IMG/VR virus record: IMGVR_UViG_3300029798_000001 | Reading direction: 5' to 3' (one strand) | Source of the DNA: a virus | Lineage: Duplodnaviria; Caudoviricetes | Length of the DNA stretch: 64,000 nucleotides | Part shown: positions 11,071 through 59,311 of the stretch, one piece after another | Layout: every line of letters starts with the position of its first letter | How positions within the stretch are numbered: position 1 is the stretch's first letter | Program-made: the position numbers and the translations under genes | Notes under the pieces: generated by a model | Databases searched by the model: none | Told to the model about the DNA's origin: nothing | The model's input: the letters and a program-made list of their open reading frames with translations, nothing else

Positions 11071-11090
11071 TTATCCGGTAAATACATACT

Positions 11091-14000
11091 ATGAATATTC
11101 AAGAATTGGATTCCTACAACCTTGGCGATGCTGTTAAGTTTAACAAGAAGTTAAACCCTCGGCTGTGGGGCAAAGACGAACATTTACTGCCGGAAGTGCG
11201 CGATCATCTATTAAAAATAGCCGATGATTTCCGCGAGTTCCTTGGAGTGACCGACCTACAACTAAAAGATATTACTATAAGTGGTTCAAATGCTGCCTAC
11301 ACCTATACTCCACATTCCGACATTGATCTACATTTAGTTGTAGATTTACCCGAAGCAGATGGGTCGGAAGTTTACCGTGAATTATTCGATGCCAAAAAGT
11401 ACCAATATAATGATATGCACCATATTAAAATTGGTGGATATGACATTGAAGTGTATGTACAAGATGCTAACAAGCCACATCGCAGTCAAGGTATCTATTC
11501 TATATTAAACAACCGATGGGTCGATGTACCTAAGCGTCGTCGACCCGAAGTAGATGACATCAGTATACGCAGTAAGTATGAAGATTTAAACCATCGTATT
11601 GAAGACGCGATTAAATCTAATAACCCCGACACAATAGGTGCATTGGCAAAAAAGATCAGCGATCTAAGACAAGCGGGCCTAGATGAACATGGCGAGTTTG
11701 GTCCAGAAAATCTAGCATTTAAAATGTTGCGTAGCCAGGGCATCATACAAAAATTATACGATGCTCGCAATGCCGCCAAAGATCACGAACTAAGTCTTAA
11801 AGAAAAAGCACCTCCAACAAGAGTTACATATGGATTTAAGACTCCGACTGTGGTAGAAGATGTTGGCATGTCGTGGGATGGCGTTAGCCCTAGTACTAAG
11901 ATGTTCCTAAGTGAAACAGAGTCAGACGAAGAAATACTTAAAGACTTTATTGAATTTTGCGTTAAAGAATTAAAAATTGAAAAGATGCCCGCGATCAAGT
12001 TGCGTAAAGATCCGCAATGGCCAGTGGTACACAAAACATTTGGTCGTTATATAAATGACCGGCACTTATTAGAAGTAGCCTGGGGTTCCCGCCATATTAT
12101 GGATGTACTACGCACTGTAGCCCACGAACTTACACATCGTCATCAACACGAGCGTGATGGCAACCGCATGGGACCCGAAGCTGGTGAAACTGGTAGTCCA
12201 TGGGAAAACGAAGCCAATGCCCGTGCCGGCGTACTAATGCGTGACTATGCTAGACTACATCCTGACTATTTTGCTGTAGGACAAGCCCAAGGCTTACACG
12301 CCGATGAGGTAACAGAAGCTTCTGTTATACAAAATCGTTTGCCGCCTAAGTTGGTAATAGGCGGCTATACATTTGTTCTTAATCCAACTACCCGCAATGT
12401 TACTGTTACTCATGGTGGCAAACCTTTTACTACCTACCATTATACTGGACTTAACAACTACGAATCATATGCAGATATTGCTTATCGTAAAATAGATCAA
12501 ACCAAATCAAGCGAGTTGGCAGATATAGCTAAAAGAGATCGTGCCAGCCCCACAGCGGCTCAACGTAGTTTTGAATACCCAACTGATTCCAGATATCAAG
12601 TTGCCATGCCCAATCAAGATCTTGACCAACTATATCGTCAGCACGATCAAGCAACAGCGCAACACGGAATCGTGGGCGGCATTACAGATTTTGGCAAATA
12701 CAGTTCCTTGGCCAAACGACGTAGACAGGCCGCACAAGCACAGGCCGACGAAGTTAAAGAAGCCAATCCAAATCAACAGTTGTCTTTGTATCGACCTGAT
12801 GGCACCACATACCGTGGTGAAAAAATGCCAGTGTTAGATCCAAACGATTTCCACAGTGACACCAATCCTCGAAAGCGTGTTGATCAAGTTACCCATCAAG
12901 ACTTAGCCAACAGGACTGCACCTGACCTGGTGGATCCTATTGAGCGGACTGAACGCAAGATTGACTTGGACCGATTAAAAAATGTAATTCGTGCCAACAT
13001 GAAAGATCTACTGTCAACTGAAACAGCAGTATTAAACATGCGTTACTGGAAAGACTTGACCTTGGAACAAACTGCACAAGCTCTGGGACTCACTCCTGAG
13101 CGTGTAAGACAAATAGAAGCCAAGGCCTTGAGAAAATTGCGGCATTTTTCCAAGAGCGATCAATTAAAACCGTTTGTAGAACCGCGGCTCACATGGCCAG
13201 GCATAAAAGAAGCTGTGGGCTACATTCCTACCGCGGCAGAAAAAAATGATCCTAGATTCAGCATGGCACTTACACAGGATATCCGTCCAGGACAACTAGG
13301 CAAAGAAGCAAACAAATTAAAATTAAAAACCAACAGTCAAGGCCAGCCGCAGATAGCTAATCCCAATGGCCTGTTTGAGAAATTAGCACTAGAGTTAGCA
13401 CAATTTAAAACGGTATCAGAGTCAGTAGAACAGTTAGACGAAGTGCGTATGGCTCCTAGCAACCTAATGCAGTGGGCCACCAGTCCAGAAGCCAAAGGCG
13501 TCCGTGCTGGTTTTGAAGCAGAGTTAATTTTCCGTGACACACAGCGTGATGATGACGAAGACTATGAAATGGAACCCGACTATGATCAAGATGAGCGTTG
13601 CCGTAGTATCAGTCAAGTAATAGACTTTTTTGGCGGTGGTGACTATGGCATGAGTAGTCGTGCATTAAACCGATTGCAGGAACAACTAGATGAAGCCTAC
13701 ATGGAGTGGCTTGATGAACAAATGATCTCTGACTTCAAACACGAAGCCGAAGATTTAATTCGTAAAGTATTAGTTGACGAAGGCGATTGGGATCTTGACA
13801 ACGAAATACAAAAGCAGTTGGCATTGATAGACGACCTAACAGATGACCAAATGAATGCTATTATACAAGCTGGCGAGCGGGCTCCTAAGTTTACAAGCAG
13901 TAAAGAAAAGGTATTATACGCAGAAGCTAATCCGTTATATGAAAAGTATTTAGATGCACAAGAAGAAGCCGAAGACCTGTTAGATGAGTTAGTTCAAGAT

Positions 14001-15851
14001 CATCTTAAAGCACAAGATGGTATTTACGATGCTGCCCTAGATGATTTCCGCGACAATTATTACATTGATGATGATAGTGGGTTTTTTGACGATGCCGGCC
14101 TACGATATATGAGTGACATAGCCAATAACTATGATGCAGAATGGCCCTACATGACCGGCGGTAATTCAGGCTCTGGCAGTCGTGATTGGGATAGCCTTAA
14201 AGATAGTTTAGAAAATACTATTGATATGCCAGTTAAAGTTAGCTCGGGCTATCACAATGCCACACGCAAAGAAGGTTTATGGATTATTGAACCTGATTCA
14301 AGCCTAACACCCGATGACTCCGATGACATGGGACTAGAAATCGTAAGTCCACCTATGCCACTATTGATGGCCCTGGAAAAATTACAAGCAGTCACAGACT
14401 GGGCCAACAGCGATACGGGCAATGCCTACACTAATAGTTCAACTGGCCTACACATGGGCGTTAGTGTTCCATTTAAAGGTGGTGATGTTGACTATCTTAA
14501 ACTAATCCTGTTCCTAGGTGACGAATATGTATTACAGAAGTTTGGTCGCGAAGCCAATACCTACTGTAAATCAGCTATGAGCAAGTTTAAAGAAAATATC
14601 AAAGGTGGTCGTGCTGACCCAGCAGGTGCGCTAAAACTCATGCAACACGGCCTACTTGAACTGGCACATAAAGAAATACAAAAAGGTGTAGGCGATGGCA
14701 AGTATACTTCGGCACATATACAAAACGGCTATATTGAATTCCGTAGTCCAGGTGGTGATTGGTTAGCTGAAGAGTCGGCTGACCCAGAAGTATTACAAAA
14801 CACTATGTTGCGTTTTGCCCGTGCTATGAGTCTTGCCGCTAACCCCAGTGAAGAACGCAGAGAATATGCCAAGAAGTTATACAAGTTAATTGCTCCTGAA
14901 GGTGACAGCGAGTTTGCATTGTTTAGTCAGTTTGCCGCGGGCGAACTCTCAGCAGAACAACTTAAGAAGCGTTGGGCTGAAAAGACCATCGGCACTGAAA
15001 AGAAAATGAATCAGCGTTGGCAATTATTCCAATTTGATAAGATTGCTGACCAATGGTTGCCAGTTCCCGGGCAGAGCTATAATGGCTACTCCGAAGATGA
15101 AGTTAAAAATAGAATATGGAGTAAGTTTGGGCGTGAAGCACTAGACTCCGGCGAATACGAACTACGCAACATGAGTGAAGACCAGCAGTGGGAAGTCTAC
15201 GATGTAAACACTGGTGAGACACTTGAGATTGTTGCAGGTAAGAACAAGGGCGAAGTAGCCGACAAAGTCTACGACAAGTATGCGGAGCAGGGAATTGGAT
15301 TTAATGTTCGACCATACGAAGATCCGGCAACAATGACTCCTCGTGCCAAGTTGGCCAAGCGTATTGCAACCAAGAAACCAGAACCGCAAAAACCTGCACA
15401 GGCTACAAACGAACGCGGTGTTCCTTATTGGGAAGTATATGAACTTGAAACTGGACATGTTGTCCATACTTTACTAAGCGACGATCTACCAGACGCTGTC
15501 ACAGACGCATACAATTGGCTGACTAGCATTGGTGCTGAACAACCAGACCTGTTTAAAGTGCGTCCTAAAATGAATGCCGACACTCCGGTCAAAGACATTG
15601 CACCCGATGTTGCTCAGAACTTTGGAGACGATTCAATGGCCGCCTACGAGAGGAACAGTGATCGCATTGATGCTATCAGAGCCGGACAAAATGCTACAGA
15701 CAGAGTAGGGTCCTGGAGCATATACGATGTTACCTTGGGGCGTGAAATCAGCAGAATGACCGATGTTCCGTGGCAAGAAGCCAGTGATCGTGCCGACATG
15801 CTCGAACGCAGTACTGGACATAATATGTCGGTCAGAGGGTTATCAGCATGA
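11091..15851 (+). CDS. 1586-aa multidomain polyprotein: Pol-beta-type nucleotidyltransferase, HExxH peptidase, sigma70 region 4 HTH, amidoligase, C-terminal repeats
   Basis: SGSN...SDIDL; HELTH...ENEANA; LTLEQTAQALGLTPERVRQIEAKALRKL; EPDSSL/GLEIVSPP/STGLHM/IEFRSPG; TAAATA at 11079. Confidence 0.8.
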   Translation: MNIQELDSYNLGDAVKFNKKLNPRLWGKDEHLLPEVRDHLLKIADDFREFLGVTDLQLKDITISGSNAAYTYTPHSDIDLHLVVDLPEADGSEVYRELFDAKKYQYNDMHHIKIGGYDIEVYVQDANKPHRSQGIYSILNNRWVDVPKRRRPEVDDISIRSKYEDLNHRIEDAIKSNNPDTIGALAKKISDLRQAGLDEHGEFGPENLAFKMLRSQGIIQKLYDARNAAKDHELSLKEKAPPTRVTYGFKTPTVVEDVGMSWDGVSPSTKMFLSETESDEEILKDFIEFCVKELKIEKMPAIKLRKDPQWPVVHKTFGRYINDRHLLEVAWGSRHIMDVLRTVAHELTHRHQHERDGNRMGPEAGETGSPWENEANARAGVLMRDYARLHPDYFAVGQAQGLHADEVTEASVIQNRLPPKLVIGGYTFVLNPTTRNVTVTHGGKPFTTYHYTGLNNYESYADIAYRKIDQTKSSELADIAKRDRASPTAAQRSFEYPTDSRYQVAMPNQDLDQLYRQHDQATAQHGIVGGITDFGKYSSLAKRRRQAAQAQADEVKEANPNQQLSLYRPDGTTYRGEKMPVLDPNDFHSDTNPRKRVDQVTHQDLANRTAPDLVDPIERTERKIDLDRLKNVIRANMKDLLSTETAVLNMRYWKDLTLEQTAQALGLTPERVRQIEAKALRKLRHFSKSDQLKPFVEPRLTWPGIKEAVGYIPTAAEKNDPRFSMALTQDIRPGQLGKEANKLKLKTNSQGQPQIANPNGLFEKLALELAQFKTVSESVEQLDEVRMAPSNLMQWATSPEAKGVRAGFEAELIFRDTQRDDDEDYEMEPDYDQDERCRSISQVIDFFGGGDYGMSSRALNRLQEQLDEAYMEWLDEQMISDFKHEAEDLIRKVLVDEGDWDLDNEIQKQLALIDDLTDDQMNAIIQAGERAPKFTSSKEKVLYAEANPLYEKYLDAQEEAEDLLDELVQDHLKAQDGIYDAALDDFRDNYYIDDDSGFFDDAGLRYMSDIANNYDAEWPYMTGGNSGSGSRDWDSLKDSLENTIDMPVKVSSGYHNATRKEGLWIIEPDSSLTPDDSDDMGLEIVSPPMPLLMALEKLQAVTDWANSDTGNAYTNSSTGLHMGVSVPFKGGDVDYLKLILFLGDEYVLQKFGREANTYCKSAMSKFKENIKGGRADPAGALKLMQHGLLELAHKEIQKGVGDGKYTSAHIQNGYIEFRSPGGDWLAEESADPEVLQNTMLRFARAMSLAANPSEERREYAKKLYKLIAPEGDSEFALFSQFAAGELSAEQLKKRWAEKTIGTEKKMNQRWQLFQFDKIADQWLPVPGQSYNGYSEDEVKNRIWSKFGREALDSGEYELRNMSEDQQWEVYDVNTGETLEIVAGKNKGEVADKVYDKYAEQGIGFNVRPYEDPATMTPRAKLAKRIATKKPEPQKPAQATNERGVPYWEVYELETGHVVHTLLSDDLPDAVTDAYNWLTSIGAEQPDLFKVRPKMNADTPVKDIAPDVAQNFGDDSMAAYERNSDRIDAIRAGQNATDRVGSWSIYDVTLGREISRMTDVPWQEASDRADMLERSTGHNMSVRGLSA

Positions 15852-16807
15852 GAGCCCAAGAGTTTATCTTTGAAGAGTATCAACCGAAGCCTGCAACATT
15901 TGCCGACGGTACTCTTAAGCTGAGCCGTCATTTGTTGACTCGTAGTGCCCAGAGAGAAATTTCCATGCCAGATATAATGGCAGTACTACAACGACTCGAA
16001 GCATTGCGTGGCAAAGATCTACGGCAGTTACCCCCAACTGGTTTTATCGTTAAAACACCAAATGATTTTGAATTGGCTATAATTAAAAGCCAGGATATCA
16101 ATACTAAAAAAATAGAATATGTAGTAGCAACAGTTCGTAAACGATTAACACCTAGCCCAGGCCAACGAATTATATATTTAGAAGATCAAGTAGACGAAGG
16201 CTGGCGAGATGTAGCTGCTGGTGTTGCTACGGCTGGAGCACTGGCTCTAGGATCTCCACAGGCTGATGCTAAAGCTATGCCCGGGCCAGGCCCGTCAATA
16301 CAAGCGCAAGCGGCAATGACACCCGTAGACAAATTACGAACTGCCGCAAAGGCCAATGGCATTCAAGGCACAGAGTTAGCACAATTCCTAGCACAGTGCG
16401 CCCACGAAAGTGCCGATTTTAATAGCATGGAAGAACATGGTGATTCCAATTACTTTGCCAAAAAATACGATCCTAATTATGCTCCAAAGACAGCCAGGAT
16501 ACTGGGCAACACACAAGTTGGTGACGGTGAACGCTACAAGGGCCGTGGCTTTATACAACTAACTGGCCGTGACAATTATACCCGAGCCGGGAAGGCATTG
16601 AACTTACCATTGGCGGATAATCCAGCACTAGCAGCTCGTCCAGATGTTGCCGCTGTGATAGCTGTATGGTATTGGAAGAATCGTGTGGCCAGTAAAGTAA
16701 AGAATTTCCACAACACTCGACAGGTAACCCGTGCTATCAATCCTGCGGCTAAAGGCCTACAATCACGGAAGGATCAATTTAAAGCATATCAGGTGGCCCA
16801 ACGATGA
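15848..16807 (+). CDS. Two-module protein: small RNase-like (BECR/DUF4258-like) module plus GH19 lysozyme
   Basis: AQFLAQCAHES and YKGRGFIQLTGRDNY (GH19, strong); N-module HLLTRSAQREI (weak). Confidence 0.75.
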   Translation: MRAQEFIFEEYQPKPATFADGTLKLSRHLLTRSAQREISMPDIMAVLQRLEALRGKDLRQLPPTGFIVKTPNDFELAIIKSQDINTKKIEYVVATVRKRLTPSPGQRIIYLEDQVDEGWRDVAAGVATAGALALGSPQADAKAMPGPGPSIQAQAAMTPVDKLRTAAKANGIQGTELAQFLAQCAHESADFNSMEEHGDSNYFAKKYDPNYAPKTARILGNTQVGDGERYKGRGFIQLTGRDNYTRAGKALNLPLADNPALAARPDVAAVIAVWYWKNRVASKVKNFHNTRQVTRAINPAAKGLQSRKDQFKAYQVAQR

Positions 16808-17409
16808 GATTATACGAAATAGCCCGCATACCACAAAGCGAACTAGGTGACTGGGGCGATAAGGATACACTTGAGCCAATGACTACTCCGCCCAAGAATC
16901 GTCGACCCCTACCCGGTGGTAGTGGCTACACTTATGCTGTAAACCGAGGCGATCCCGAGTTTATGGAGATTATGATTTTTGAAGGTGACACATTGGCCGC
17001 AGAACTAGATTTATTTGCCACTCTTGACCCGTTAAAGACCTGGCGTGTCGAAACTGTAATAACCGATCCAGACTATCGTGGCAAGGGTTTAGGCAAAGCC
17101 TTGTATGGTATTGCTCTTAACATACTTAAACTTACAATTGAAGCCGGAGAAACACAGACCAAATTTGGACAACAGATGTGGCTTATGTTAAGCAGTATTC
17201 CCGGAGTAGAAGTCCTGGGTTATGCTATGGAATCAACTGATAGGTATCGTCCAAGACCGGGCGATCAAGTGGTAGATAAAAATGATACCTGGACTCGCTA
17301 TACATTCCCTGTAGAGCCCGGACGGCGTAGCATGCGTAGTACACGCCGCGGAACTGGCATTTATAGTAGTCAGTACGTTAGCATGATAGCAAAGTGGACA
17401 GGCCAATGA
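16804..17409 (+). CDS. GNAT-family acetyltransferase
   Basis: Motif A VITDPDYRGKGLGKALY. Confidence 0.75.
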   Translation: MRLYEIARIPQSELGDWGDKDTLEPMTTPPKNRRPLPGGSGYTYAVNRGDPEFMEIMIFEGDTLAAELDLFATLDPLKTWRVETVITDPDYRGKGLGKALYGIALNILKLTIEAGETQTKFGQQMWLMLSSIPGVEVLGYAMESTDRYRPRPGDQVVDKNDTWTRYTFPVEPGRRSMRSTRRGTGIYSSQYVSMIAKWTGQ

Positions 17410-17618
17410 GATTCCAAGAAATCCTCGAAGCTGTAAAAACCAACCCTGGTACAAATTATAAACTATGGGTGGCATCAGTTAAGATCAAACAACCTAACTA
17501 TGTGGGCTATATCGATGTCACTGCTACAGCTCCCAATATCCAAATAGCCCGTACACTAATGAAAGCCCAGTACGGTGTACAAGACTGGGAAATTGGCAGT
17601 ATCAAAGAAGTAAAATAA
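17406..17618 (+). CDS. Small protein with MRxxE(F/I) leader
   Basis: ATG at 17406 overlapping the upstream stop; MRFQEILE. Confidence 0.65.
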   Translation: MRFQEILEAVKTNPGTNYKLWVASVKIKQPNYVGYIDVTATAPNIQIARTLMKAQYGVQDWEIGSIKEVK

Positions 17619-17657
17619 GACTACATACCCACCAAGTAAAATTGCACTAAATACAGC

Positions 17658-17951
17658 ATGACCAAGCAATTTATCCGTTTGCTGTGTGATGTTGATTGTG
17701 AGTGGGAAAGTTTCCCACCCATATATCGTGCCTATGTCAACGACGAATTGTTTGCGGAACGCACCTGGCTGTGGACCGATTGTTATCTCGAAGAACTGTT
17801 TCAGATTGAAGCCGAGCCCGGTGAATACACTATACGCTATGAATTAGTTCCTCCACATCTGGCCCGGCTAACTGTGAAAAATATGCGTGTAGATCACGGC
17901 CCAGGAACCGTGGATAATAATGTATTAAGGATTACCAATGAGACTACATGA
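17658..17951 (+). CDS. Hypothetical protein
   Basis: TAAATA at 17648. Confidence 0.6.
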   Translation: MTKQFIRLLCDVDCEWESFPPIYRAYVNDELFAERTWLWTDCYLEELFQIEAEPGEYTIRYELVPPHLARLTVKNMRVDHGPGTVDNNVLRITNETT

Positions 17952-18150
17952 ATTTGTTGATTTAAAAGAAGACGGCGGTGCCAGCAGTGGAAGCACTTGT
18001 AGCGGCAGTATAGCCCCTGTAGTTACTGCGTTAGGCGGTACGATTAGTAGAAATAGCGGTAGTTTCTTTAGTGGAGTAAGCACCTCAGATCCGACCCCAA
18101 ACACACCTAAAAAATATAAAAAAAAATCTAGGTTTCAGAATAGTCTTTAA
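17938..18150 (+). CDS. Small G/S-rich protein with MRxxEF leader
   Basis: MRLHEFVDLKE; 3' end overlaps the convergent endonuclease gene. Confidence 0.55.
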   Translation: MRLHEFVDLKEDGGASSGSTCSGSIAPVVTALGGTISRNSGSFFSGVSTSDPTPNTPKKYKKKSRFQNSL

Positions 18151-18811
18151 CTATTTTCCAATCTTTATAGATTTCTCTTTTACCTTGTGCTAGTGCTCTT
18201 ATAGGGACTCTTCTAAGTTTTAATTTTTTGCTAAACTCGTAGGGAGTTTCTTTATATTCTTCTCCTGTTTTTTCGTTCTTAAAAACATAAAGGGTATGAT
18301 CATATCCGGGATTATTTTTTCCAATCTTAGATCTTGATCCAAATGTCTTTTTATAATCATCGGTAAAATATCGTCCTTTGGTCCATCCTGTTGGAATTTG
18401 GGTTGTTCCTTTGATCTTTTTGTTTTTACTGCCATTATTAATCCAAATAGTTCCATACATGGGATTATTTTTGCCAGCATTATTAATTACACATTTTTTC
18501 TTAAAGTCTTCTCCGCGATCACGACCCGCTACACCGCCAGGTCCACCGCCAGTTTCACGAATACGATTTGCCCAGGCTGGATCATTGACGATATTCCACA
18601 GATCGCTATAATAACGACCTGTTTGTTTCATTTCTTCTTTGTTTGTAGTTTCGAGTAGTATTTCGGTATTGACATCATACCCATATTCTTCTATATGAGT
18701 AGTCCAATCAACCCCAGATCCTTGGTATTTAAACGGATCTCTTTTTGTTTGTCCTAGGTATTGCAGACCTGTTTTGTTATGGGTCTTTTTGTAAAGGTAG
18801 TAAATACTCAT
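18128..18811 (-). mobile_element. Free-standing GIY-YIG (Seg-like) homing endonuclease, antisense
   Basis: YYLYKKTH...LQYLGQT...YQGSG; NUMOD-like GKNNPMYG and WINNG motifs; own TAAATA and GGAG RBS on the minus strand. Confidence 0.8.
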
Positions 18812-18874
18812 GCTGATTGCTCCTTCAAGCGTTAGAGTAGTTGGATATCCCCATATCGCGAACTACACATAAAC

Positions 18875-18893
18875 ATATTTATGGCATAAATAT
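18875..18893. promoter_or_regulatory. Back-to-back late promoters forming a perfect inverted repeat
   Basis: ATATTTATG-G-CATAAATAT gives CATAAATA on both strands, between the endonuclease (-) and dps (+). Confidence 0.7.
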
Positions 18894-18921
18894 AAAATAT
18901 AATAACATTAAAGGAACAGTT

Positions 18922-19362
18922 GTGTTAGCTGAATTATTAAAAACTCTGCTTGCTAGTCAATTTGCTTACTATTTAAAAGCTACTTTCTTCCATTGGAATT
19001 GCGAAGGAGCAGATTTTTATCAGCTACACAAATTTTTCCAAAAAATTTACGAAGATGCCTATTCTGCTGTAGATACTATAGCTGAAGAAATTCGCACTCT
19101 TGATGAATATGCCCCCGGTAGCTTTGAACGCTTTGCCGAACTTTCACAAATACAAGGACAAACTAAAGTTCCTAGAGCTAGGCTCATGATTGAGGAATTG
19201 TTGGCCGATAGTCAGACCATGATTGATCTACTCAATCAAATATTTGTTGTTGCAACCAAAGAAAACAAACAAGATATTGCTAATTTTATGGCTGAGCGGT
19301 TAACGGCGCAAAACAAATATATGTGGCAGTTAAAAAGTTTCCTAAAAGAAGCAAGGGCATGA
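18922..19362 (+). CDS. dps: Dps/ferritin-like protein
   Basis: FHWNCEGADFYQLHKFFQKIYED...DTIAEEIR; likely GTG start behind the AAGGA RBS. Confidence 0.85.
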   Translation: MLAELLKTLLASQFAYYLKATFFHWNCEGADFYQLHKFFQKIYEDAYSAVDTIAEEIRTLDEYAPGSFERFAELSQIQGQTKVPRARLMIEELLADSQTMIDLLNQIFVVATKENKQDIANFMAERLTAQNKYMWQLKSFLKEARA

Positions 19363-19365
19363 TCC

Positions 19366-20841
19366 GTGTCACAAGACCATAACGATATCTATTCTATTGT
19401 AGAACGTCTTCGTATGCTTGAAGAAGGCTTAAACACGAATCAACGAAGTGTTAATCAACTTTCGGCCACATTTCGACCAAAAACAGTAGCAGTGCTTACT
19501 GCCAAAACTGATCCTAAAAATCCCCTGGCCGGCAAGTTAGTTGGTGGTTGCGAGGAAAGTGAAGAGCTTGATGATGACAATGCTATTAATAATGCAATAG
19601 ATCCAGAAAGAGATCGCAATACTATTGCCTCTGAAAGTCGTGTAGAAGAAGATGTCCTGGATAAAGTTAAAAGTAGTTTTTCAGACTATCTAAAAAGTAT
19701 TGAGGACAAGTATCGAGATTCTCACTTGAAAGATAAAAAACACGAAGATACAGATTTACGAGCAAAAGATAAAACAGATCGGGATCTACGCCCTAAACAA
19801 GTTACTGCCGAAGGCTTAGAACAACAATATCTATGGCACGGGTCAAGACAAAAGATTCCTATGTTAGAACCACGCCAATCAGTAGATACAGGTGGTGCGG
19901 CAGGTAGCAATCAAAATGCTATCTATGCTACAAGTGATCCTAAAGTTGCTATAGCAATGGGACTTACAACTCCTGGTAGCGATACAGGTATGTTCCCTAA
20001 CGATCCTCAGATGGTCTTGTTTAGTGGCAAGATTAGAAAAGGTGAAAATGTTTACCTACACAAGGTGCCGATGAATGGACCTGATGGCAAACCGCAGTTT
20101 GTTCAAGGTGGCAACAGTAGAGAGTGGTATTCCAAGCCAGGTGTTAAAGAAATTAAGCCACTAGAAGTAAAAGCAGTTCCTGTGGACCAGTATCTGAACT
20201 TGATTAGACAAGCAACACCGCAAGATTTAGAACTACAGAAAAAGTATATGAAGCAAGGTATAGCGGAAGCCATCGATACACAGGCATATTATATTGTTAA
20301 TGCTAACAAGAATTATTCAATCTTGGCAGGTCCGTTTGCGTCACGCGAGCAAGGCCGCGCAGAATTTCAAAAAATAATACATCAATATCCTGGCGACTTG
20401 AAAGATCTTAGTTTACTACAAGGTCATGTATTACAGCAATCACAAAAAGATGCACTGGATGAACCAGATAGCAAAGAGCCGTGGCATGGTATTAAAGATC
20501 CTGAGCTATTAAAAGATTTAATTGCTGATGCACAAGTTATGGACTACGATGAGTTCTACGATGAATACAGTAGTATGTTTGATGATCCAGAAGAATTCTG
20601 GGATAACTATCATAACGACGAGCAAGATATAGTAGAAAGCGCACCAGTTAAGACTATTACCAATGAATGTGGGTTGTGGGAAGTGCATGGTGATGATCAT
20701 AGCGGGTTTGCAATTCGCCACGGTAATCGTCAACTACCCACACGCTTTAAAAATTTAGAAGAGGCCGAGTTGGCCTTAGAGATGTTTAATATTCGTCGCC
20801 GTCGGCGTGATGACGCAGCGGATTACATAGACGAAGCATAA
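19366..20841 (+). CDS. Polyprotein containing an ADP-ribosyltransferase-like module
   Basis: LWHGS...LEPR...AIYATSD (HG[ST]...Y[AF]T pattern of ART folds) bounded by TAE|G and QGIAE|A. Confidence 0.65.
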   Translation: MSQDHNDIYSIVERLRMLEEGLNTNQRSVNQLSATFRPKTVAVLTAKTDPKNPLAGKLVGGCEESEELDDDNAINNAIDPERDRNTIASESRVEEDVLDKVKSSFSDYLKSIEDKYRDSHLKDKKHEDTDLRAKDKTDRDLRPKQVTAEGLEQQYLWHGSRQKIPMLEPRQSVDTGGAAGSNQNAIYATSDPKVAIAMGLTTPGSDTGMFPNDPQMVLFSGKIRKGENVYLHKVPMNGPDGKPQFVQGGNSREWYSKPGVKEIKPLEVKAVPVDQYLNLIRQATPQDLELQKKYMKQGIAEAIDTQAYYIVNANKNYSILAGPFASREQGRAEFQKIIHQYPGDLKDLSLLQGHVLQQSQKDALDEPDSKEPWHGIKDPELLKDLIADAQVMDYDEFYDEYSSMFDDPEEFWDNYHNDEQDIVESAPVKTITNECGLWEVHGDDHSGFAIRHGNRQLPTRFKNLEEAELALEMFNIRRRRRDDAADYIDEA

Positions 20842-23800
20842 GGAAAAATAAATGTTTGCATTAGACCTATTCAACACAAAATACGAGAAGTCACTACAAG
20901 AGGGTGCCACAGATAACACGACCGAACATCTGCTTAAACCTCTCCATCTCCGTGCTGCAAACATTCTTACACAGTTGCGTTCCGGACATACTACTCCTGA
21001 AAAAGTAGCGGCCCTTACAAAAGAATATGAAGATTTAGTTGCAGAGCGTATGAGTATTCTTAAAGGTGAACACCCAGAATCAACAAACGAAATGGGTTAC
21101 GGTAGTCTAGGCGAAGATGATATGATTCCAGTTGGTCGTATGCAACCCGGTACACCAGAATATGCTGCCGCCCGTAATCGTTCTGTAAAATACGCAGAGT
21201 TGACACCAGATTACACAGGCGGGCATAAAACTGCTGGCCCTACTACTGTCGGATATAAAAAAGCAACAAACAAACCGTTGGTCCCAGGCGAAGTTGAAGT
21301 GGCGGAAGCCGGATTACCGGGCAATTTACCTCCAGAACAAATTCCGGGTAAAGAAGATTTACTAAAAGGTAAGGGTCGTCAAACTTACGAAGAAAATATA
21401 GACGAAGGGTTTGGCCCTGTTGGTAGTAAGGGATTAATGAATGGCAATTTTGCTACATTTATGAAAGCTCGCCAAAACAGGACACCAGTTACATTAGAAA
21501 TCGGTGGTGAGGAGTTTAGACTTACACCAACAATGATGGATGCTATGGCTAAGAAATATCTTGCAGATAAAGCCGCTAGTGATGCAGCCCCTACTAATCG
21601 AGATATAAAATTAATAGCTGTTAACAATTATCGTGCATTTGGTTATCCACAATTGATGAGAGCATTTATCGACGGTGTTGCTACTCACGACAACACTCCT
21701 CCGGCTAATGTGCCAGGTGAACAGTTGCCAATGTTCGAAAGAACTCAACAGGTTCAAAAAAAAAATTCTAAAAAAGCCGATCCAGATTTAGGTGCCGGTA
21801 CAGCTCGAGATGCGACGGTACAGAGAGAACTTCAAAAGGTTCGGGCCCGCCATCCTAATGCCCGTAGCGATATCGAAGCCCTGGTCAAAGACGAAATAGT
21901 TAATCAAGAACGAGTTGACCAGGAATTGTCTCAACAACAAGATAATATTCAACAACAAACAGCTCAATTAGCACAATTAGGTAGTGTAAATCGACAACAA
22001 GATACAAAAATAAACAGTTTACAGCAACAGTTAGCTACCGCGGTACAGTCTATTAAATCTGCACCCGTTACTCCAGCTACTACAAAACCCGCCAGTATGC
22101 CTGTTAGTAAGCCTGCTAGTGTTGCTCCTGCAACTACTACAGTGCCAAGTAGTATTACAGCAGCATTGCCGGTACCACAGACAGCCAAGGATCAAGAAAT
22201 TTACGATAAAGTTCAAAGTCTCGAAACAGAGCTTAAAGACAAAATTGATGCCATGGCTAGCTGGAATGCTATTGCACAAAAAGATCCTCAATCTAATAAT
22301 GAACTTACAGCACTGCGCAAAGAAGTTGAGCGCACTAAGAAAGAATTACAGCAACAAATTATTAAACTTAAACCAATTAAAAAGAAACCAACAACTCAAG
22401 CTCCGGCGTTATCAGACCCTAATGTAATTGATATAGATGCTTGGGAGGTTCCGGGGATGGCAGTACCCGAAGTGCCTGATAATATAAAAACCGAGCCAGG
22501 AACTGCTACGCCCGCAAAAGAATTACCGATTGATCAATTAGATCACCAAGTTGATACTACTCCATTCGCCGGTGGTACTAAAAACAATCAATGGGGTCCA
22601 AAAAATATGCCAGGTGGCAGATTTACAGTACAAGATGTTGACCCTTACGACATCGGAGTTCATGAAGCTGTTGAACCCGGTGAAGAAATCTCAACAAATG
22701 AATTACTATACCGTGCGGCTGTTGAGTATATGCAACACATGGGCCGCGAAGGTCAGCCAGTTGACTACGAAACAGCCGTTAAGTTGGCAGCCAAACATTA
22801 CCATATTCCTTACCGCCCAGGTATGGTTCCAGAATTACATGCCAAGCGTCAAGAACTAGATGCTAAACTTGATGCGGCTATTAGAGCTCGTCAAGCCGAG
22901 CGTGGTGCCCGTAAACAACGACAACTGGCTCGCACAGCGCCAACTACCCCAGAACAGGAAAAGAAAATGCAAGACTATTGGTCCAAGAATGCGCCACAGG
23001 CTACAAGAGTAAAAGCACCAACACGAAGTTTAGAAGAAAATCAACAGTTACATGTCGGTGATCCTATTGTTGTTACAGCACCCAACGAGTTTGAAGGTAA
23101 GACTGGTGAGATCTACGACTTTGCGCCAAGTGGCAAGTTTGTTATTGTCAACTTGTACAATCACGGCAAACACAGTATGCACCTAAGTGATGTTGAATAC
23201 AATCAATATGCCAACGACCAAGATGAGAAAGAATTTTGGAATGGTGATAAAGAAGTTAATGAAAGCAATATGAGTGAGTTAGATGCAATGCGTCAAGATC
23301 TTGAATTAATGAATGATCGCCAATTTAAAGTTGCCTATGGTATAAGCAAGGTAGCATTTAGGCAAAAGTATCGTGCATTATTGAATCCAGCACCTCAACA
23401 AGATGTTCCGGTAGAAGAAGGATGGCAAGACTTCAACAAGGTAGAGCCATATGCTGTTTGTTTAGCTGGCAAGCCTGTTAAGAAGTTTGACTACTATGAA
23501 GAAGCTCGCCGCTTCCACGATAACTGGAAGAAGAAGTTGTACCGCGAAGGCAACAAAGAAAAAGCAGATAAGATTACCTTGATGCCCATCATGGACGAAG
23601 GTGATGATCAGAATGGTCAACCTAGGGCTGGATTACCTGCAAATTTTGCAAACAGAATAATGGCATTAGATTTTCCACAAAGAAAAATATTTAGAGATTA
23701 TATAAATTCATTTAACAAAATTCGCCAGGCATCGGCCGATCTTAATAAGATGTTGGCTGGATTTCCTAAAGATATTATTGACGCTTATCAACAGTTAACT

Positions 23801-25144
23801 CCTGAGCAACAACAGTCAGTGTCAATGGTGTTAGAACCTGGTTGGGAAGAAGAAAACCAACTGGTACAAAAATATAAAAATGGAGTTGTAAAAAAACAAG
23901 GCGTGACAGAAGCTGGTAGCCCAGCACAACAGGCTGCCATCGCCATTGCTATGAAGCGGGCTGGTAAGAAACCTAAGCAAGCAGATGAGGGACAATTTAG
24001 CGTCACTGATGATCCATCTGCACATATTAAAGTATTATTTCTTAAAACAATAAACGGAAATGAATATCGTTTGGTAAAACAAGGCGGTGTGTATAAGATT
24101 TATGTAAACAGAAGTAAGAAAACCAAACAAGAATTTCCATCTTTTGACCTTGCTAAAAAAGCATTACAACAATTATTATTAAATGCAGTGAATACAGATG
24201 AAGCGTATACACCAAGTCCAGCTAAACCGTTTCGCAATCCTAGAGGCTTTAATAAACAAGGCACAGGTGTAGGCAATAAATTAGCACAACAAACTCGTGC
24301 TGAGTTAGCAAACATACAACCAAGGAAAGGTACACCGGTTCCAGCCAAAGAATTTGCTCAAGGTGTTTTGAAAGATTTAAAGAAGGTGAATGTAAAAGAA
24401 GCAGAAGGTAGTTGGATTGTGTATGATCCCGAAACCAAACAGATCAAGAAGCGTTTTAAAACACACACCGCAGGCAAGAGCTATGCTCAAACTCACGGCC
24501 TAGGATTTGCCAGTAGTGAATACTACTTTGACCGTGTTAAAGAACCGGTTAATGAACTTGATGTTAATACCTTAAAGAGTTATGCAGACAAGCGTGGAGC
24601 ACAAGTGGCCGCAATGAAGGCCGACAATCCTAATCCTCAAACAGGCAGTAAAGAATGGGTTCAACAAGCTGTTCCGGCACAACAAGTAGGTCTTGCAAAT
24701 CGTAAGATTGCTCGTAAAGAACGCCAGCAAGGTGTGGCGGAGGACTGGATTGATGACGATGCCGCAGAGCCATTGGCCAAATACTTTGCTGACTTATACT
24801 ATGGCGATTTTAGTGCTACTATGAAAGTTAAACTAACCTCACACATTTATCAAGCTATTCAAAACGGTGAGTTGAGTATTGAACAACTTAAAGCTGACAT
24901 TGATATGTTGGAAAAAGAAAAAGGCATTAAAGAGCAAGGTGTGGCGGAAGGCAAGGGTCTGGCTAAGAAGGTAAAGATTGTTAAAGGTCCAGATGCAGGC
25001 AAGACAGGTTGGATTAGAGAAGTTAAACATGGTGCTTTCAAAGGTGCTCCAAAAACTTATTATATTGATTTAGATGATGGTGGTCAGGCAAATAACTTAC
25101 CGGCCACAGCATTACGATTAGTTAAAGAACAAGGCATGGCGGAA
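20254..25144 (+). repeat. Dispersed 15-nt repeat CAAGG(T/C)RTRRC(G/A)GA(A/G) encoding QG(V/M/I)(A/T)E
   Basis: Copies at 20254, 23897, 24728, 24935 and 25130; partial copies at 21299 and 9786. Confidence 0.9.
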
Positions 25145-25930
25145 GGCTATACTCCGGATACAAACTATTCTTATACTATTGTAGGCAACGGTGACGAATC
25201 TAAAGCGTATGATAGTAAAGAAGAAGCGCGAGATGCCATGCGTAAACTTGGCGCTGGTTATAAGATTAAACGCAAGCCACGCACAAGTGCTCGTAGTGTT
25301 AAAAAACATTTTAGTAATCGCAATATGGAACTTGGTGAAACACACGAACCACAGAAGTTTATTGTTACTATCAATGGTAAAGCCACTAGCCCACTATACC
25401 CAGATATGGCAGATAAATTATACATAGCGGCCAAGCGGGCACAACCTAATGCTCGTGTTGAAAAGACTGTGGCACAAACTACGGAGCGTCAAAAAGGTAT
25501 TGATCGTGTTAAAGCTGGCTACGGTGATGAAGATGCATTAGAATTACATGAACAACTGCCATCAACACCGCCGGCTAATCGCAAAGAGTATTTAGATCAA
25601 CGCGATAAGTTATTCCGTATGTTGGCAGTTGACACCAACCCAGTTAATAAGCAGATTATTAAACAGGCATTAAAAGATTTAGACAATCGATATGGTTCTA
25701 TAAAAAATCCAGTAAATGAAGAAAATAGCACCAGCAGTGAAGCTGTTGAAATAGCCCTAATTCGTCGTGTATTAGTAGCACATACTGATTTAATCATGGA
25801 TTTTGGTCTTGACAAGGTTACACAAGCCATCGAGGAAGTTGCTTACAATGTTGGTGATGTGGATGAAATCGGCACCAGTGATGTTAGTGGCTGGATCCAT
25901 CAAGTCAAACAAATACTCGGTGTTGAATGA
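20852..25930 (+). CDS. 1692-aa modular polyprotein with many xxE|G/A/S linkers, coiled coil and two KOW/SH3-like modules
   Basis: Repeated QGVAE/QGMAE/QGVTE, VNE, VEE, IDE and MDE boundaries; VGDPIVVTAPNEFEGKTGEI and VKIVKGPDAGKTGWI resemble KOW. Confidence 0.75.
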   Translation: MFALDLFNTKYEKSLQEGATDNTTEHLLKPLHLRAANILTQLRSGHTTPEKVAALTKEYEDLVAERMSILKGEHPESTNEMGYGSLGEDDMIPVGRMQPGTPEYAAARNRSVKYAELTPDYTGGHKTAGPTTVGYKKATNKPLVPGEVEVAEAGLPGNLPPEQIPGKEDLLKGKGRQTYEENIDEGFGPVGSKGLMNGNFATFMKARQNRTPVTLEIGGEEFRLTPTMMDAMAKKYLADKAASDAAPTNRDIKLIAVNNYRAFGYPQLMRAFIDGVATHDNTPPANVPGEQLPMFERTQQVQKKNSKKADPDLGAGTARDATVQRELQKVRARHPNARSDIEALVKDEIVNQERVDQELSQQQDNIQQQTAQLAQLGSVNRQQDTKINSLQQQLATAVQSIKSAPVTPATTKPASMPVSKPASVAPATTTVPSSITAALPVPQTAKDQEIYDKVQSLETELKDKIDAMASWNAIAQKDPQSNNELTALRKEVERTKKELQQQIIKLKPIKKKPTTQAPALSDPNVIDIDAWEVPGMAVPEVPDNIKTEPGTATPAKELPIDQLDHQVDTTPFAGGTKNNQWGPKNMPGGRFTVQDVDPYDIGVHEAVEPGEEISTNELLYRAAVEYMQHMGREGQPVDYETAVKLAAKHYHIPYRPGMVPELHAKRQELDAKLDAAIRARQAERGARKQRQLARTAPTTPEQEKKMQDYWSKNAPQATRVKAPTRSLEENQQLHVGDPIVVTAPNEFEGKTGEIYDFAPSGKFVIVNLYNHGKHSMHLSDVEYNQYANDQDEKEFWNGDKEVNESNMSELDAMRQDLELMNDRQFKVAYGISKVAFRQKYRALLNPAPQQDVPVEEGWQDFNKVEPYAVCLAGKPVKKFDYYEEARRFHDNWKKKLYREGNKEKADKITLMPIMDEGDDQNGQPRAGLPANFANRIMALDFPQRKIFRDYINSFNKIRQASADLNKMLAGFPKDIIDAYQQLTPEQQQSVSMVLEPGWEEENQLVQKYKNGVVKKQGVTEAGSPAQQAAIAIAMKRAGKKPKQADEGQFSVTDDPSAHIKVLFLKTINGNEYRLVKQGGVYKIYVNRSKKTKQEFPSFDLAKKALQQLLLNAVNTDEAYTPSPAKPFRNPRGFNKQGTGVGNKLAQQTRAELANIQPRKGTPVPAKEFAQGVLKDLKKVNVKEAEGSWIVYDPETKQIKKRFKTHTAGKSYAQTHGLGFASSEYYFDRVKEPVNELDVNTLKSYADKRGAQVAAMKADNPNPQTGSKEWVQQAVPAQQVGLANRKIARKERQQGVAEDWIDDDAAEPLAKYFADLYYGDFSATMKVKLTSHIYQAIQNGELSIEQLKADIDMLEKEKGIKEQGVAEGKGLAKKVKIVKGPDAGKTGWIREVKHGAFKGAPKTYYIDLDDGGQANNLPATALRLVKEQGMAEGYTPDTNYSYTIVGNGDESKAYDSKEEARDAMRKLGAGYKIKRKPRTSARSVKKHFSNRNMELGETHEPQKFIVTINGKATSPLYPDMADKLYIAAKRAQPNARVEKTVAQTTERQKGIDRVKAGYGDEDALELHEQLPSTPPANRKEYLDQRDKLFRMLAVDTNPVNKQIIKQALKDLDNRYGSIKNPVNEENSTSSEAVEIALIRRVLVAHTDLIMDFGLDKVTQAIEEVAYNVGDVDEIGTSDVSGWIHQVKQILGVE

Positions 25931-26568
25931 GATTTGGTGAATTTAAACGAGCCAGCCAAGAACACCTTGACGAAATTCTAGTTCGTTTATGTGCTATGGT
26001 GGTTGACGGTCAGAAGAAAGACCCTGACCATTATGGCATGGTTGCTGCTGCGGTATTAGATCCTGATAATAATTGTGTTGCGGCTACTAGTTATAATGAA
26101 GATGGCAAGTGGGTGCATGCCGAGAGGGCGGCAATAGATGCATATCATAGTCGTGGTGGCCGTATTCCAGCCGGCAGTATTATTATTACAACCTGTAGTC
26201 CATGTAGTGAAAAAATGGATGACCGCTACAGTGAAAGTTGCACAGACTTAATTAATGATACAGGTGTAGACTTAGTCTATGCTGGCTATGAAGATCCCAC
26301 CCAACATGCAGAGCAGGCCAAGTTCAAGGTTGAAGTGTCCGACAATCCAAAGATACACGAACTATGCCATGTATTTGCATCAACCTTTATGGACAAAGAA
26401 GCGGCACAGTTAGATGAACTCAGCTTCTTAGGATCGCCATGCACCAAAGACTGTTCGGGTCATCGTGCTGGCTATGCCTGGAGCCAAAGCAAAGGTGGGC
26501 GTGTTGCCCAAAGTCCTTTTAGTCCTAGTTTCAATAATGGTAGCCAACTTCAAGTGGATGGTAAGTAG
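25927..26568 (+). CDS. Zn-dependent deaminase (CDA/dCMP deaminase superfamily) with C-terminal Cys module
   Basis: VHAERAA (HxE) and CSPC...C motifs; MRFGEF leader. Confidence 0.75.
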   Translation: MRFGEFKRASQEHLDEILVRLCAMVVDGQKKDPDHYGMVAAAVLDPDNNCVAATSYNEDGKWVHAERAAIDAYHSRGGRIPAGSIIITTCSPCSEKMDDRYSESCTDLINDTGVDLVYAGYEDPTQHAEQAKFKVEVSDNPKIHELCHVFASTFMDKEAAQLDELSFLGSPCTKDCSGHRAGYAWSQSKGGRVAQSPFSPSFNNGSQLQVDGK

Positions 26569-27142: not shown

Positions 27143-29293
27143 ATGAGTTTTGTAGATGCACTTTTTGATCGTGAACACGATCGTATCCATGTAGTTGAGC
27201 GCCGAGACGGTGAGCGGGTATACAAAGAATACCCTGCAAATTTTGTATTCTATTATGAAGACCCTCGTGGCAAGTTTCAAAGTATATTTGGCACACCGGT
27301 AAGTCGTTTTAGCTCACGTAACAATAAAGAATTCCGCAAAGAACTTAGGATACAATCAGGCAAGAAATTATTTGAATCTGATATCAATCCTGTATTTCGG
27401 TGCCTTGAAGAAAACTACAAAGGGCAAGACGGTCCAAAACTTAATGTAGCGTTCTTTGACATTGAGGTGGACTTTGATCCTGAGCGCGGATTTAGCCGCC
27501 CAGAGGATCCATTTAATGCTATCACTGCCATTTCAGTTTACCTACAGTGGTTAGAGCAAATGGTCACCTTGGTAATTCCACCTAAGCATATGAGCAAAGA
27601 AACAGCTCAAGAAATTGCCAACGAGTTTGAAAACACAATCATATTCACTGAAGAAGGAGAACTGTTAAAAACATTCCTAGACTTAATCGAAGATGCAGAT
27701 GCATTGTCGGGTTGGAACTCAGAAGGATTTGATATACCGTACACTGTCAACCGTGTAACTCGTATACTAAGTAAAGATGATACCCGCAGGTTTTGCTTAT
27801 GGAATCAATATCCCAAGAAGCGTACATTTGAACGCTTTGGTGCAGAAAACGAAACTTACGATTTGATTGGTCGTGTACATATGGATTATATGCAATTGTA
27901 TCGAAAATATACATATGAAGAACGCCATAGTTACAGTTTAGATGCCATTGCTGAATATGAACTACAAGAAACTAAAACAGTGTTCGAAGGCACACTGGAT
28001 CAATTATACAATCAAAACTTTAAAACATTTATTGAGTATAATCGACAAGATACAATGATTCTTGCCAAGTTAGATAAGAAACTAAAATTTTTAGATCTAG
28101 CCAACACCTTGGCACATGAAAATACTGTGCTATTGCAAACTACTATGGGTGCCGTGGCTGTGACAGAACAGGCCATTATCAATGAGGCACACGAGCGTAG
28201 TATGGTTGTTCCTAATCGTAAGGAACGCTATTCGGATGAAGATACACAAGCGGCCGGTGCCTATGTTGCTTATCCACGCAAGGGTATACATGAGTATGTA
28301 GGATCAATTGATATTAACTCACTATATCCAAGTGCTATTCGTGCGCTTAATATGGGTCCAGAAACTATTGTGGGGCAACTCCGTCCTACAATGACCGATC
28401 GTTATATTGCCGATAAGATGCGTAGTGGAAGTAGTTTTGCCGCAGCGTGGGAAGGCCTGTTTGGATCATTAGAATATGAAGCTGTAATGGCCAGTGAGCG
28501 CGGCACAGAGATTACAGTAGATTGGCAAGGTGGTGAAGATTCTGTACACAGTGCGGCAGAAGTTTGGAAGATGATTTTTGATTCTAACCAACCATGGATG
28601 CTTAGTGCCAACGGTACAATCTTTACCTATGAAAAAGAAGCAATTATTCCGGGATTGTTAAAACGCTGGTACGCCGAGCGGAAAGAAATGCAGTCCAAAC
28701 TTAAAGAATGTAAAAATGCAGAAGACGAAGAATATTGGGATAAACGACAACTCGTTAAAAAGATTAACCTTAACAGTCTCTATGGTGCTATCCTTAACCC
28801 TGGTTGCCGCTTTTTTGATAAGCGCATTGGACAATCTACCACACTAACCGGTCGTGCTATCGCCAAGCACATGGACGCCTATGTAAATGAATGTATCACT
28901 GGCAAGTATGACCATGTAGGCGAATCAATTATTTACGGTGACAGTGTAACCGGCAATACTCTTATTAAGACTGATTCTGGAGAAATAGCTATTGAAGAAT
29001 TATTTAGACAGACTCCTGAACATTGTATTATTGGTGACAAGGAATATGCTACTGGAGCATTGGCCAAAGTTGTGGGATTTAATGCGTATGAAGATTCTCC
29101 TATAATGAGCAATATATCGTACGTAATGCGACACAAAACAAAAAAGAAACTGTACAAAATTACGCTAGAAAATAATAAGTCAGTCACTGTAACCGAAGAT
29201 CATAGTATAATGGTAGATCGTGACGGATTCCTAATGGAAGTAAAACCCAATGACATCTTGGGTAAAGATTTAATTATCAGTCTGAATACATAA
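27143..29293 (+). CDS. Family B DNA polymerase N-terminal half fused to split-intein N-fragment
   Basis: Exonuclease DIE and YNxxxFD-type motifs, SIDINSLYPS, KINLNSLYG, then IYGD followed by intein SVTG...TEDH; TATAAATA at 27060; RBS AAGGAG. Confidence 0.95.
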   Translation: MSFVDALFDREHDRIHVVERRDGERVYKEYPANFVFYYEDPRGKFQSIFGTPVSRFSSRNNKEFRKELRIQSGKKLFESDINPVFRCLEENYKGQDGPKLNVAFFDIEVDFDPERGFSRPEDPFNAITAISVYLQWLEQMVTLVIPPKHMSKETAQEIANEFENTIIFTEEGELLKTFLDLIEDADALSGWNSEGFDIPYTVNRVTRILSKDDTRRFCLWNQYPKKRTFERFGAENETYDLIGRVHMDYMQLYRKYTYEERHSYSLDAIAEYELQETKTVFEGTLDQLYNQNFKTFIEYNRQDTMILAKLDKKLKFLDLANTLAHENTVLLQTTMGAVAVTEQAIINEAHERSMVVPNRKERYSDEDTQAAGAYVAYPRKGIHEYVGSIDINSLYPSAIRALNMGPETIVGQLRPTMTDRYIADKMRSGSSFAAAWEGLFGSLEYEAVMASERGTEITVDWQGGEDSVHSAAEVWKMIFDSNQPWMLSANGTIFTYEKEAIIPGLLKRWYAERKEMQSKLKECKNAEDEEYWDKRQLVKKINLNSLYGAILNPGCRFFDKRIGQSTTLTGRAIAKHMDAYVNECITGKYDHVGESIIYGDSVTGNTLIKTDSGEIAIEELFRQTPEHCIIGDKEYATGALAKVVGFNAYEDSPIMSNISYVMRHKTKKKLYKITLENNKSVTVTEDHSIMVDRDGFLMEVKPNDILGKDLIISLNT
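28943..29293 (+). mobile_element. Split intein N-fragment (116 aa, Ser1)
   Basis: Starts after YGD with SVTGNTLI; block B VTEDHS; ends at a stop codon. Confidence 0.9.
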
Positions 29294-29320
29294 ATACTAT
29301 GAAGATAGGAGTATCATCAT

Positions 29321-30280: not shown

Positions 30281-30381
30281 AAAGTATTGATTGTCTCGGT
30301 GAGGTGGATGACTATGTGTATGATCTCAGTATAGAAGATCAAGATCCTTATTTTTTTGCCAATGACATATTGGTGCATAAT
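30256..30381 (+). mobile_element. Split intein C-fragment (42 aa, ends HN, +1 = Thr)
   Basis: Block F VYDLSI and block G HN. Confidence 0.9.
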
Positions 30382-59233: not shown

Positions 59234-59311
59234 GGGCGGTTAGCATAGTAGGTTAATGCCGGCGACTCATAATCGTCAGAGTGATAGGTTCAAATCCTTC
59301 ACCGCCCACCA
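59234..59311 (+). tRNA. tRNA with CAT anticodon (elongator Met or lysidine Ile2)
   Basis: GGGCGGT/ACCGCCC acceptor stem, GCAT/ATGC D-stem, anticodon loop CTCATAA, TTCAAAT T-loop, encoded CCA; G1:C72 excludes the initiator. Confidence 0.9.

Follow-up and report, generated by a model that had tools for sequence, protein, structure and literature searches.

Candidate capsid-targeted cargo polyproteins with hydrophobic-x-Glu joints in an uncultured T4-related jumbo phage

The internal head proteins of phage T4 carry a 10-residue capsid-targeting sequence (CTS), which is enough for packaging and is cut off by the prohead protease gp21 (PMC9026906). The CTS has been viewed as a means, shaped by evolution, of getting diverse proteins loaded (Mullaney & Black 1996; review PMC9026906). 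In T4, phiKZ and SPN3US alike, the prohead protease cleaves after a Glu that is preceded by a short motif (PMC9026906), and in phiKZ, 201phi2-1 and SPN3US many internal head proteins are ejected, while some propeptides are cut at several sites (PMC5694885, PMC10052503). A second precedent is the "polyvalent proteins" (Iyer, Burroughs, Anand, de Souza, Aravind 2017, PMC5512222), for which head packaging and injection have been predicted and which show extensive mosaicism. Here, we compare with these systems a gene cluster at positions 11091-26568 of a 64,000-nt stretch of DNA (IMG/VR virus record IMGVR_UViG_3300029798_000001; the whole stretch is hereafter the window). The window is part of the genome of an uncultured jumbo phage related to T4. 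The large proteins of the cluster are probably capsid-targeted cargo precursors cut by the prohead protease, that is, a polyprotein form of both the T4 internal proteins and Aravind's polyvalent proteins.

The cluster comprises three gene runs, all on the plus strand: open reading frames (ORFs) A-B-C-D, a 97-aa ORF (E) followed by F, and a Dps-like gene followed by H, I and J. All three big ORFs claimed in the initial annotation of this DNA are present, namely A (1586 aa, 11091-15851), H (491 aa, 19366-20841) and I (1692 aa, 20852-25930). It had also described the genes as ATGA-coupled; this holds for the four overlaps A/B, B/C, C/D and I/J, while E and F overlap by 14 nt instead. We compared A, H and I with the ORFs of 28 related IMG/VR loci; the long relatives are G001, which is complete at 344 kb, G002 and G003.

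The cluster resembles T4 IPI, IPII, IPIII and Alt in having leaders of about 10 residues that end in hydrophobic-x-Glu, a gp21-type S77 protease (here in the relatives), and small, variable, non-essential-looking cargo that includes enzymes. In T4, however, cargo is encoded by separate genes with one terminal cut (two in Alt), whereas here up to ~19 cassettes are chained per ORF with internal sites. Unlike the T4 internal proteins, I and H use other leader types, and the system described here is known from sequence alone. At the hyperplastic ip1 locus of T-even phages, which Repoila and co-workers are said to have described in 1994, different small genes reportedly share a common CTS-like leader, and the variability has reportedly been read as an arms race with host restriction. 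The ip1 locus holds separate small genes and not fused cassettes, and no linker-mediated in-frame exchange is known to have been described there.

The likeness to polyvalent proteins lies in giant proteins that join many conflict domains unrelated to one another: GNAT, lysozyme and nucleotide enzymes, a weak BECR-type RNase match, and putative zincin-like peptidase and ART modules. Polyvalent proteins combine 2-15 unrelated conflict-type domains per polypeptide in portal-terminase phages; A has four such modules and B two, and the relatives have portal and terminase genes. Iyer et al. 2017 proposed MPTase autoprocessing and defined no inter-domain cleavage motif or DNA joint, whereas the joints here carry a Glu that fits a prohead protease. 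In addition, and unlike the 2017 proteins, most modules here are 50-130 aa long without known domains, and neighboring genes have CTS-like leaders. As to phiKZ, 201phi2-1 and SPN3US, their diverged gp21 homologues (gp175/gp245) likewise cut after Glu (PMC5694885, PMC10052503); in contrast, phiKZ-type cuts strip N-terminal propeptides off single mature proteins, in another lineage, with the motif A/S/G-x-E and no cassette arrays. A literature search found no paper on phage polyproteins delimited by a prohead protease.

The evidence for processing sites comes from the position of Glu at cassette ends: across the IMG/VR relatives and the metagenomic representatives, modules of A, H and I turn up in dozens of unrelated settings, and a Glu precedes and closes them. 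A phmmer search with residues 700-1692 of I against 1.84 billion representatives matched 1423 proteins (789 at E ≤ 1e-10), many of them polyproteins, up to 1646 aa long, in which several stretches match independently; the context, logo and 5-mer counts that follow refer to the best 150 of these 1423 matches. The best documented module is the 60-aa cassette I857-916 (23420-23599). The residue preceding it (P1) is Glu in all 66 distinct upstream contexts, and its own last residue is Glu at the projected position in 57 of 59 distinct downstream contexts. Other cassettes have P1 Glu at exactly their projected ends in 32/32, 13/13 and 10/10 contexts. Across 226 distinct joints, P3 is V, L, M, I, F or T in ~97% (V 41%, L 21%, M 20%), P2 is mostly D or A, P1 is Glu, and P1' is G (47%), D (18%), A (12%) or S (11%). 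QGVAE is the top 5-mer in the 150 representatives (136 times), and their strong sites have a median spacing of 79 aa. Among the 28 loci, 33% of the internal homology breakpoints (n = 1173) lie within 3 aa of [VILM]xE, compared with 12.5 ± 1% at random positions. Eleven sites had been named individually as domain bounds in the initial annotation. Eight of these match comparative module boundaries, while FLSE↓T, QLDE↓V and VLVDE↓G (arrows mark the predicted cut) fall inside conserved blocks; EVKE↓A has no comparator among the relatives.

ORFs H and I are mosaics of such cassettes. ORF I opens with the leader MFALDLFN...SLQE↓G and closes with a conserved C-module (1624-1692); between them, residues 729-1623 hold at least 14 cassettes of 26-127 aa, each with a hydrophobic-x-E end. 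Pieces of I reappear in different orders among the 28 loci, and the protein also has coiled-coil and low-complexity stretches. H has a conserved helical N-part (1-149; leader end MLEE↓G) and a conserved C-module (425-491). Its cassettes 150-301 and 302-424 are inserted between VTAE↓G and DIVE↓S and are missing in the orthologues, which are ~200 aa long. Pfam searches at E ≤ 1 gave nothing significant for most cassettes.

Predicted structures place domain ends at the same sites. The AlphaFold model of I715-935 (100-row alignment) has two confident small domains, a three-helix domain at 807-846 and a beta-beta-alpha-alpha-beta domain at 864-914, and confidence drops sharply at VPVEE↓G and again past IMDE↓G, so that cassette I857-916 appears as a confident compact fold between low-confidence linkers. 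The single-sequence model of H (predicted local distance difference test score, pLDDT, 39.7) is usable only for the C-module; its sole confident domain starts at 427, two residues past DIVE↓S. Domains that span the Glu sites would have spoken against the precursor idea, and in both models (I715-935 and the H C-module) the domains end at the sites. A fold search with the I715-935 model found no credible known fold (best PDB match Z 4.4, ClpS-like ~4.2), and its BFVD matches are all uncharacterized proteins from uncultured phages, some of them with an amidoligase or a deaminase. In a MAFFT alignment of I1110-1500 fragments, repeated similar modules led to misalignment.

ORF A, a putative polyvalent polyprotein, consists of a nucleotidyltransferase (NTase)-like module (1-243; phrog_36119, E 3e-39), an HExxH module (~258-409), a module without known domain (410-557), a sigma-70 region 4 cassette (558-707; 12762-13211), a small conserved module (708-777) and an amidoligase block (778-~1270; Amidoligase_2, 25.4 bits, cut-off 22). 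The sigma-70 region 4 match (PF04545, residues 641-685) reaches E 1.6e-14 and 53.6 bits against a gathering cut-off of 24.1, with no region 2. The cassette is flanked by EVKE↓A and GIKE↓A. Relatives of A pass directly from ~400 to 708, so that residues 410-707 are absent exactly between EVTE↓A and GIKE↓A, and 11 homology breakpoints at 703-708 mark the right boundary. The C-terminus of A (1301-1586) consists of small repeated W-x-(V/I)-Y-(D/E) domains. This repeated domain, W-x-(V/I)-Y-(D/E)-x-x-(T/L)-G in full, also occurs at I 1184-1236 and H 425-491, has no Pfam match, and corresponds to the abundant "TGSWIVYD" cassette among metagenomic representatives.

Most of the domain labels first given to the cluster were borne out: sigma region 4, amidoligase, GH19 lysozyme, GNAT and deaminase by Pfam, and the NTase-like module by its PHROG match. 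The KOW label (I ~1373-1391) was not, at 18.1 bits against a Pfam gathering cut-off of 22.3. The label "peptidase" for A has as its sole basis the HExxH motif with a downstream Glu, the best Pfam match being DUF3920 at a non-significant E 0.03. For the proposed ART domain (H150-301), there was no Pfam match at E ≤ 1 and no meaningful PDB sequence match. A language-model Atlas feature to Arr-type ART at 0.86 offers a weak lead, and the single-sequence fold was unusable (pLDDT ~30).

The small ORFs carry a shared N-terminal leader. We scanned both strands of the window for every ATG with 50 or more codons behind it, and the start M-[RK]-x-x-E-[FIL] occurs just five times, in B, C, D, F and J. 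In these ORFs the leader takes up the 6-12 N-terminal residues and reads M-R-x-x-E-F/I ... hydrophobic-x-E. ORF B (319 aa, 15848-16807) begins MRAQEFIFE↓E, which pairs with MKTYQEFIAE↓A of T4 IPIII/IPII (read from NC_000866), and combines a weak DUF4258/BECR-like N-domain with a GH19 lysozyme (Pfam). ORF C (201 aa, 16804-17409; leader MRLYEI) is a GNAT acetyltransferase and, in relatives, is the C-terminal module of 380-680-aa proteins. ORF D (70 aa, 17406-17618) begins MRFQEILE↓A, and its G001 orthologue MRFQEIVE↓A. ORF F (70 aa, 17938-18150) joins MRLHEFVDLKE↓D to a basic low-complexity tail, and ORF J (213 aa, 25927-26568; leader MRFGEF) has a cytidine/dCMP deaminase domain. The 97-aa ORF E (17658-17951) has no leader and is kept in G001.

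The M-R-x-x-E-F/I leader also marks the syntenic cluster in G001. Elsewhere in that genome, at 127896-129949 (L047 7896-9946), three tandem genes of 126-133 aa lie between the tail-tube and large-terminase genes and begin MRAREFIAE↓G, MRAVEFITE↓A and MRAKEFIRE↓D; these genes appear to be directly equivalent to those of the T4 internal proteins. H and I have their own conserved leaders, given above. The I-type leader, MFALDLFN...L-x-E↓G, is found in 63 of 136 Met-starting representatives, and other classes exist (e.g., MNLLDIFE↓G).

The relatives encode T4-type head machinery. A Peptidase_S77 (gp21-type) prohead protease is present in G001, G002 and G003 (E 6e-24 to 1e-25), where it adjoins the portal, core, scaffold and gp23-like capsid protein genes (in G001, the protease gene is at 89211-89861 and the scaffold, core and capsid genes at 88.4-92.2 kb), and the N-terminus of the gp23-like capsid protein has ELLE↓G and ALLE↓G. 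The same three genomes encode a gp55-like late sigma factor. As initially claimed, TAAATA stands ahead of all three runs, at 6 nt from the ATG of A (11079-11084, directly after a terminator-like hairpin), 4 nt from that of E (17648) and 29 nt upstream of the Dps-like gene (18887). In G001, the portal gene, a small head gene and the A orthologue all begin with the layout TAAATA-N4-8-ATG. With the gp55-like sigma in relatives and TAAATA before portal and head genes, the label "late" for the cluster is reasonable as a prediction. Only this shorter layout is informative; TATAAATA as such is not enriched (3 copies vs 7.4 expected), and sigma-70 promoter and terminator scans stayed at chance level. 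The PA5oct omics paper contains nothing on processing or TAAATA promoters. As a separate observation, TAAATA lies 4-8 nt before an ATG, without a Shine-Dalgarno sequence, at 1984, 9071, 11079, 17648, 48021 and 63700 (+) of the window, and genome-wide in G001 the TAAATA-N4-8-ATG layout precedes 36 genes, portal included. If TAAATA is the -10 element of a gp55-type late promoter, the mRNAs of such genes would be leaderless or nearly so.

The commonest joint, QGVAE, is also conserved as DNA. Its codons are nearly fixed over 17 distinct sites, nine of which have an identical 15-mer. Ala is GCG in 76% of the linkers versus 7% overall in these ORFs, Val is GTG in 71% versus 20%, and Gly is GGT in 94% versus 43%. 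The 15-nt linker CAAGGTGTGGCGGAG (QGVAE↓D) lies at 24728-24742, with more copies at 20254-20268, 23897-23911, 24935-24949 and 25130-25144. Locus L005, which is 95-99% identical to the window where aligned, tracks the I sequence up to the 15-mer and then continues with H cassette 302-424, the crossover lying inside the 15-mer. Both L005 and L006 are without one entire I cassette of 129 codons, which lies between LGE↓T and VNE↓E. These exchanges indicate that the QGVAE joint also acts as an in-frame exchange point. We tentatively suggest that the joint may be dual-purpose, a head-protease site in the protein and a fixed 15-nt exchange joint in the DNA. Such a cassette system, with integron-like logic inside ORFs, might give a large uncultured jumbo-phage group (at least 1400 protein clusters at 50% identity) a way to reshuffle its stock of small injected proteins. 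Many of these could be undiscovered anti-defense or host-takeover factors acting before phage transcription. Neither the DNA-level conservation and cassette exchange nor the precedent of Iyer et al. 2017 figured in the initial annotation.

From sequence, we infer the expression timing, packaging, cleavage, injection and module functions as follows. T4-late-type TAAATA promoters would drive synthesis of the cluster proteins, which would be incorporated in the prohead core. The leader of B, C, D, F and J would be equivalent to the T4 CTS, with H and I using their own leaders. A gp21-type S77 protease would then cut after the Glu of every hydrophobic-x-Glu joint (consensus Q-G-V-A-E↓G), which would free putative enzymes (NTase-like, HExxH, amidoligase, lysozyme, GNAT, deaminase) as well as the sigma region 4 domain and numerous proteins of 50-130 aa without assigned function. 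The products would stay inside the head until they are injected together with the DNA, like T4 IPI-III and Alt. Related phages swap, gain or lose entire cassettes in frame at the 15-nt joint, and the payload is thus recombined like a cassette array. The earlier proposal that these ORFs encode packaged precursors agrees with the invariant P1 Glu, the CTS-like leaders, the S77 protease and gp55-like sigma in relatives, TAAATA at the portal gene, and the AlphaFold domain ends; it needs amending at the three sites that are not boundaries.

Several observations count against such processed and injected cargo. The loose motif [VILAM]xE[GASD] is not commoner than in shuffled sequence (observed vs shuffled: 11 vs 10.5 in A, 14 vs 10.1 in I, 7 vs 3.1 in H), and the evidence therefore had to rest on positions. 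P1' is sometimes Pro or Met, and A starts with MNIQEL, without an M-R-x-x-E-F leader. The cluster is surrounded by replication and metabolic genes, and in G001 it lies ~185 kb from the head genes. We infer the window phage's own protease from relatives, with 50-93% aa identity to A, H and I over aligned segments. No cultured phage with homologues of I or J was found among 50,697 phage records: neither a megablast search with the region nor tblastn searches with I and J gave a match there, and ORF A matched only via its NTase and amidoligase modules. Two further points, that QGVAE is conserved partly for DNA and not protein, its silent positions being fixed, and that in T4 many cleavage fragments of core proteins arise and mostly exit the head (PMC9026906), each lead to a different explanation.

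The first of these explanations is that the proteins stay uncut as multidomain proteins, and the linker is a DNA joint for in-frame exchange with no protease site. The fixed QGVAE codons with their shared 15-mer, the L005 crossover inside it, and the missing 129-codon cassette of L005 and L006 all suit this account. However, at most joints the sequence differs from QGVAE, and Glu and a hydrophobic P3 are all that these joints have in common, so a DNA repeat cannot explain the whole pattern; the 66 different sequences upstream of I857-916 share just these two features. Moreover, the P-side motif stays attached to the upstream module when that module moves, which is how a protease tag should behave, and the leaders match the T4 CTS. 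Exchange without cleavage is thus an unlikely explanation.

The second explanation accepts the prohead protease but takes the products as scaffold or core filler, whose fragments would leave the head during maturation, like the T4 gp22/gp67 peptides, instead of being injected. Besides the fate of T4 core fragments, the long helical N-part of H and the coiled-coil and low-complexity stretches of I point this way. Yet enzymes and a sigma region 4 domain are among the modules, and the hypervariability of the modules and their shuffling among close relatives are typical of conflict genes and not of scaffolds. The relatives already own a dedicated scaffold and core beside the protease, and the folded 7-9-kDa modules are the size of T4 IPI, which is retained. 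Taken together, we regard a filler role as quite improbable. Equally doubtful is an unpackaged polyprotein cut in the infected cell by the HExxH module of A or by a Lon-like protease (5112-7388). In its favor, A has that module, a Lon-like gene lies 4 kb upstream, and Iyer et al. 2017 (PMC5512222) predicted that the MPTase domain processes polyvalent proteins. Against it, neither H nor I contains a peptidase domain, strict P1 Glu specificity with a hydrophobic P3 is what has been documented for gp21-type proteases, and a link to the head is indicated by the CTS-like leaders and by the IP-like genes that G001 has in its structural region.

Cleaved, capsid-targeted cargo, if it is the right reading, would mean that the head cargo of T4-related jumbo phages is a large, rapidly recombined cassette library and not a handful of internal proteins. 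The rule of hydrophobic-x-Glu joints plus a CTS-like leader would predict cargo directly from metagenomes, and it would delimit hundreds of small stand-alone candidate inhibitors of restriction, CRISPR and other defenses. It would also give polyvalent proteins a concrete processing mechanism, other than the one proposed in 2017, and the fixed 15-nt joint would be a rare example of a coding linker under selection as protein and as DNA alike.

The remaining genes of the region and window are described briefly. A GIY-YIG homing endonuclease gene (227 aa, 18128-18811, minus strand) lies between ORF F and the Dps-like gene, that is, between the second and third runs; it has the N-terminus IYYLY...GLQYLGQT, NUMOD3-like repeats and lower GC, and is absent at the same position in G001. 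The Dps/ferritin-like gene (18922-19362; GTG start; Pfam Ferritin, E 8e-23) is the first of the H-I-J run and holds the same position, at the head of that run, in G001. Downstream of the cluster, a family B DNA polymerase (27143-31239, +) is split into 716-aa and 327-aa ORFs with a 319-aa ORF (phrog_22677) between them; the window polymerase is ~50% identical to those of PA5oct, Atu_ph07 and SCTP-2. The Lon-like ATP-dependent protease upstream of the cluster is 758 aa long and encoded on the plus strand (phrog_4871, E 1e-234), and a tRNA-Met (CAT) gene lies at 59234-59311 (+).

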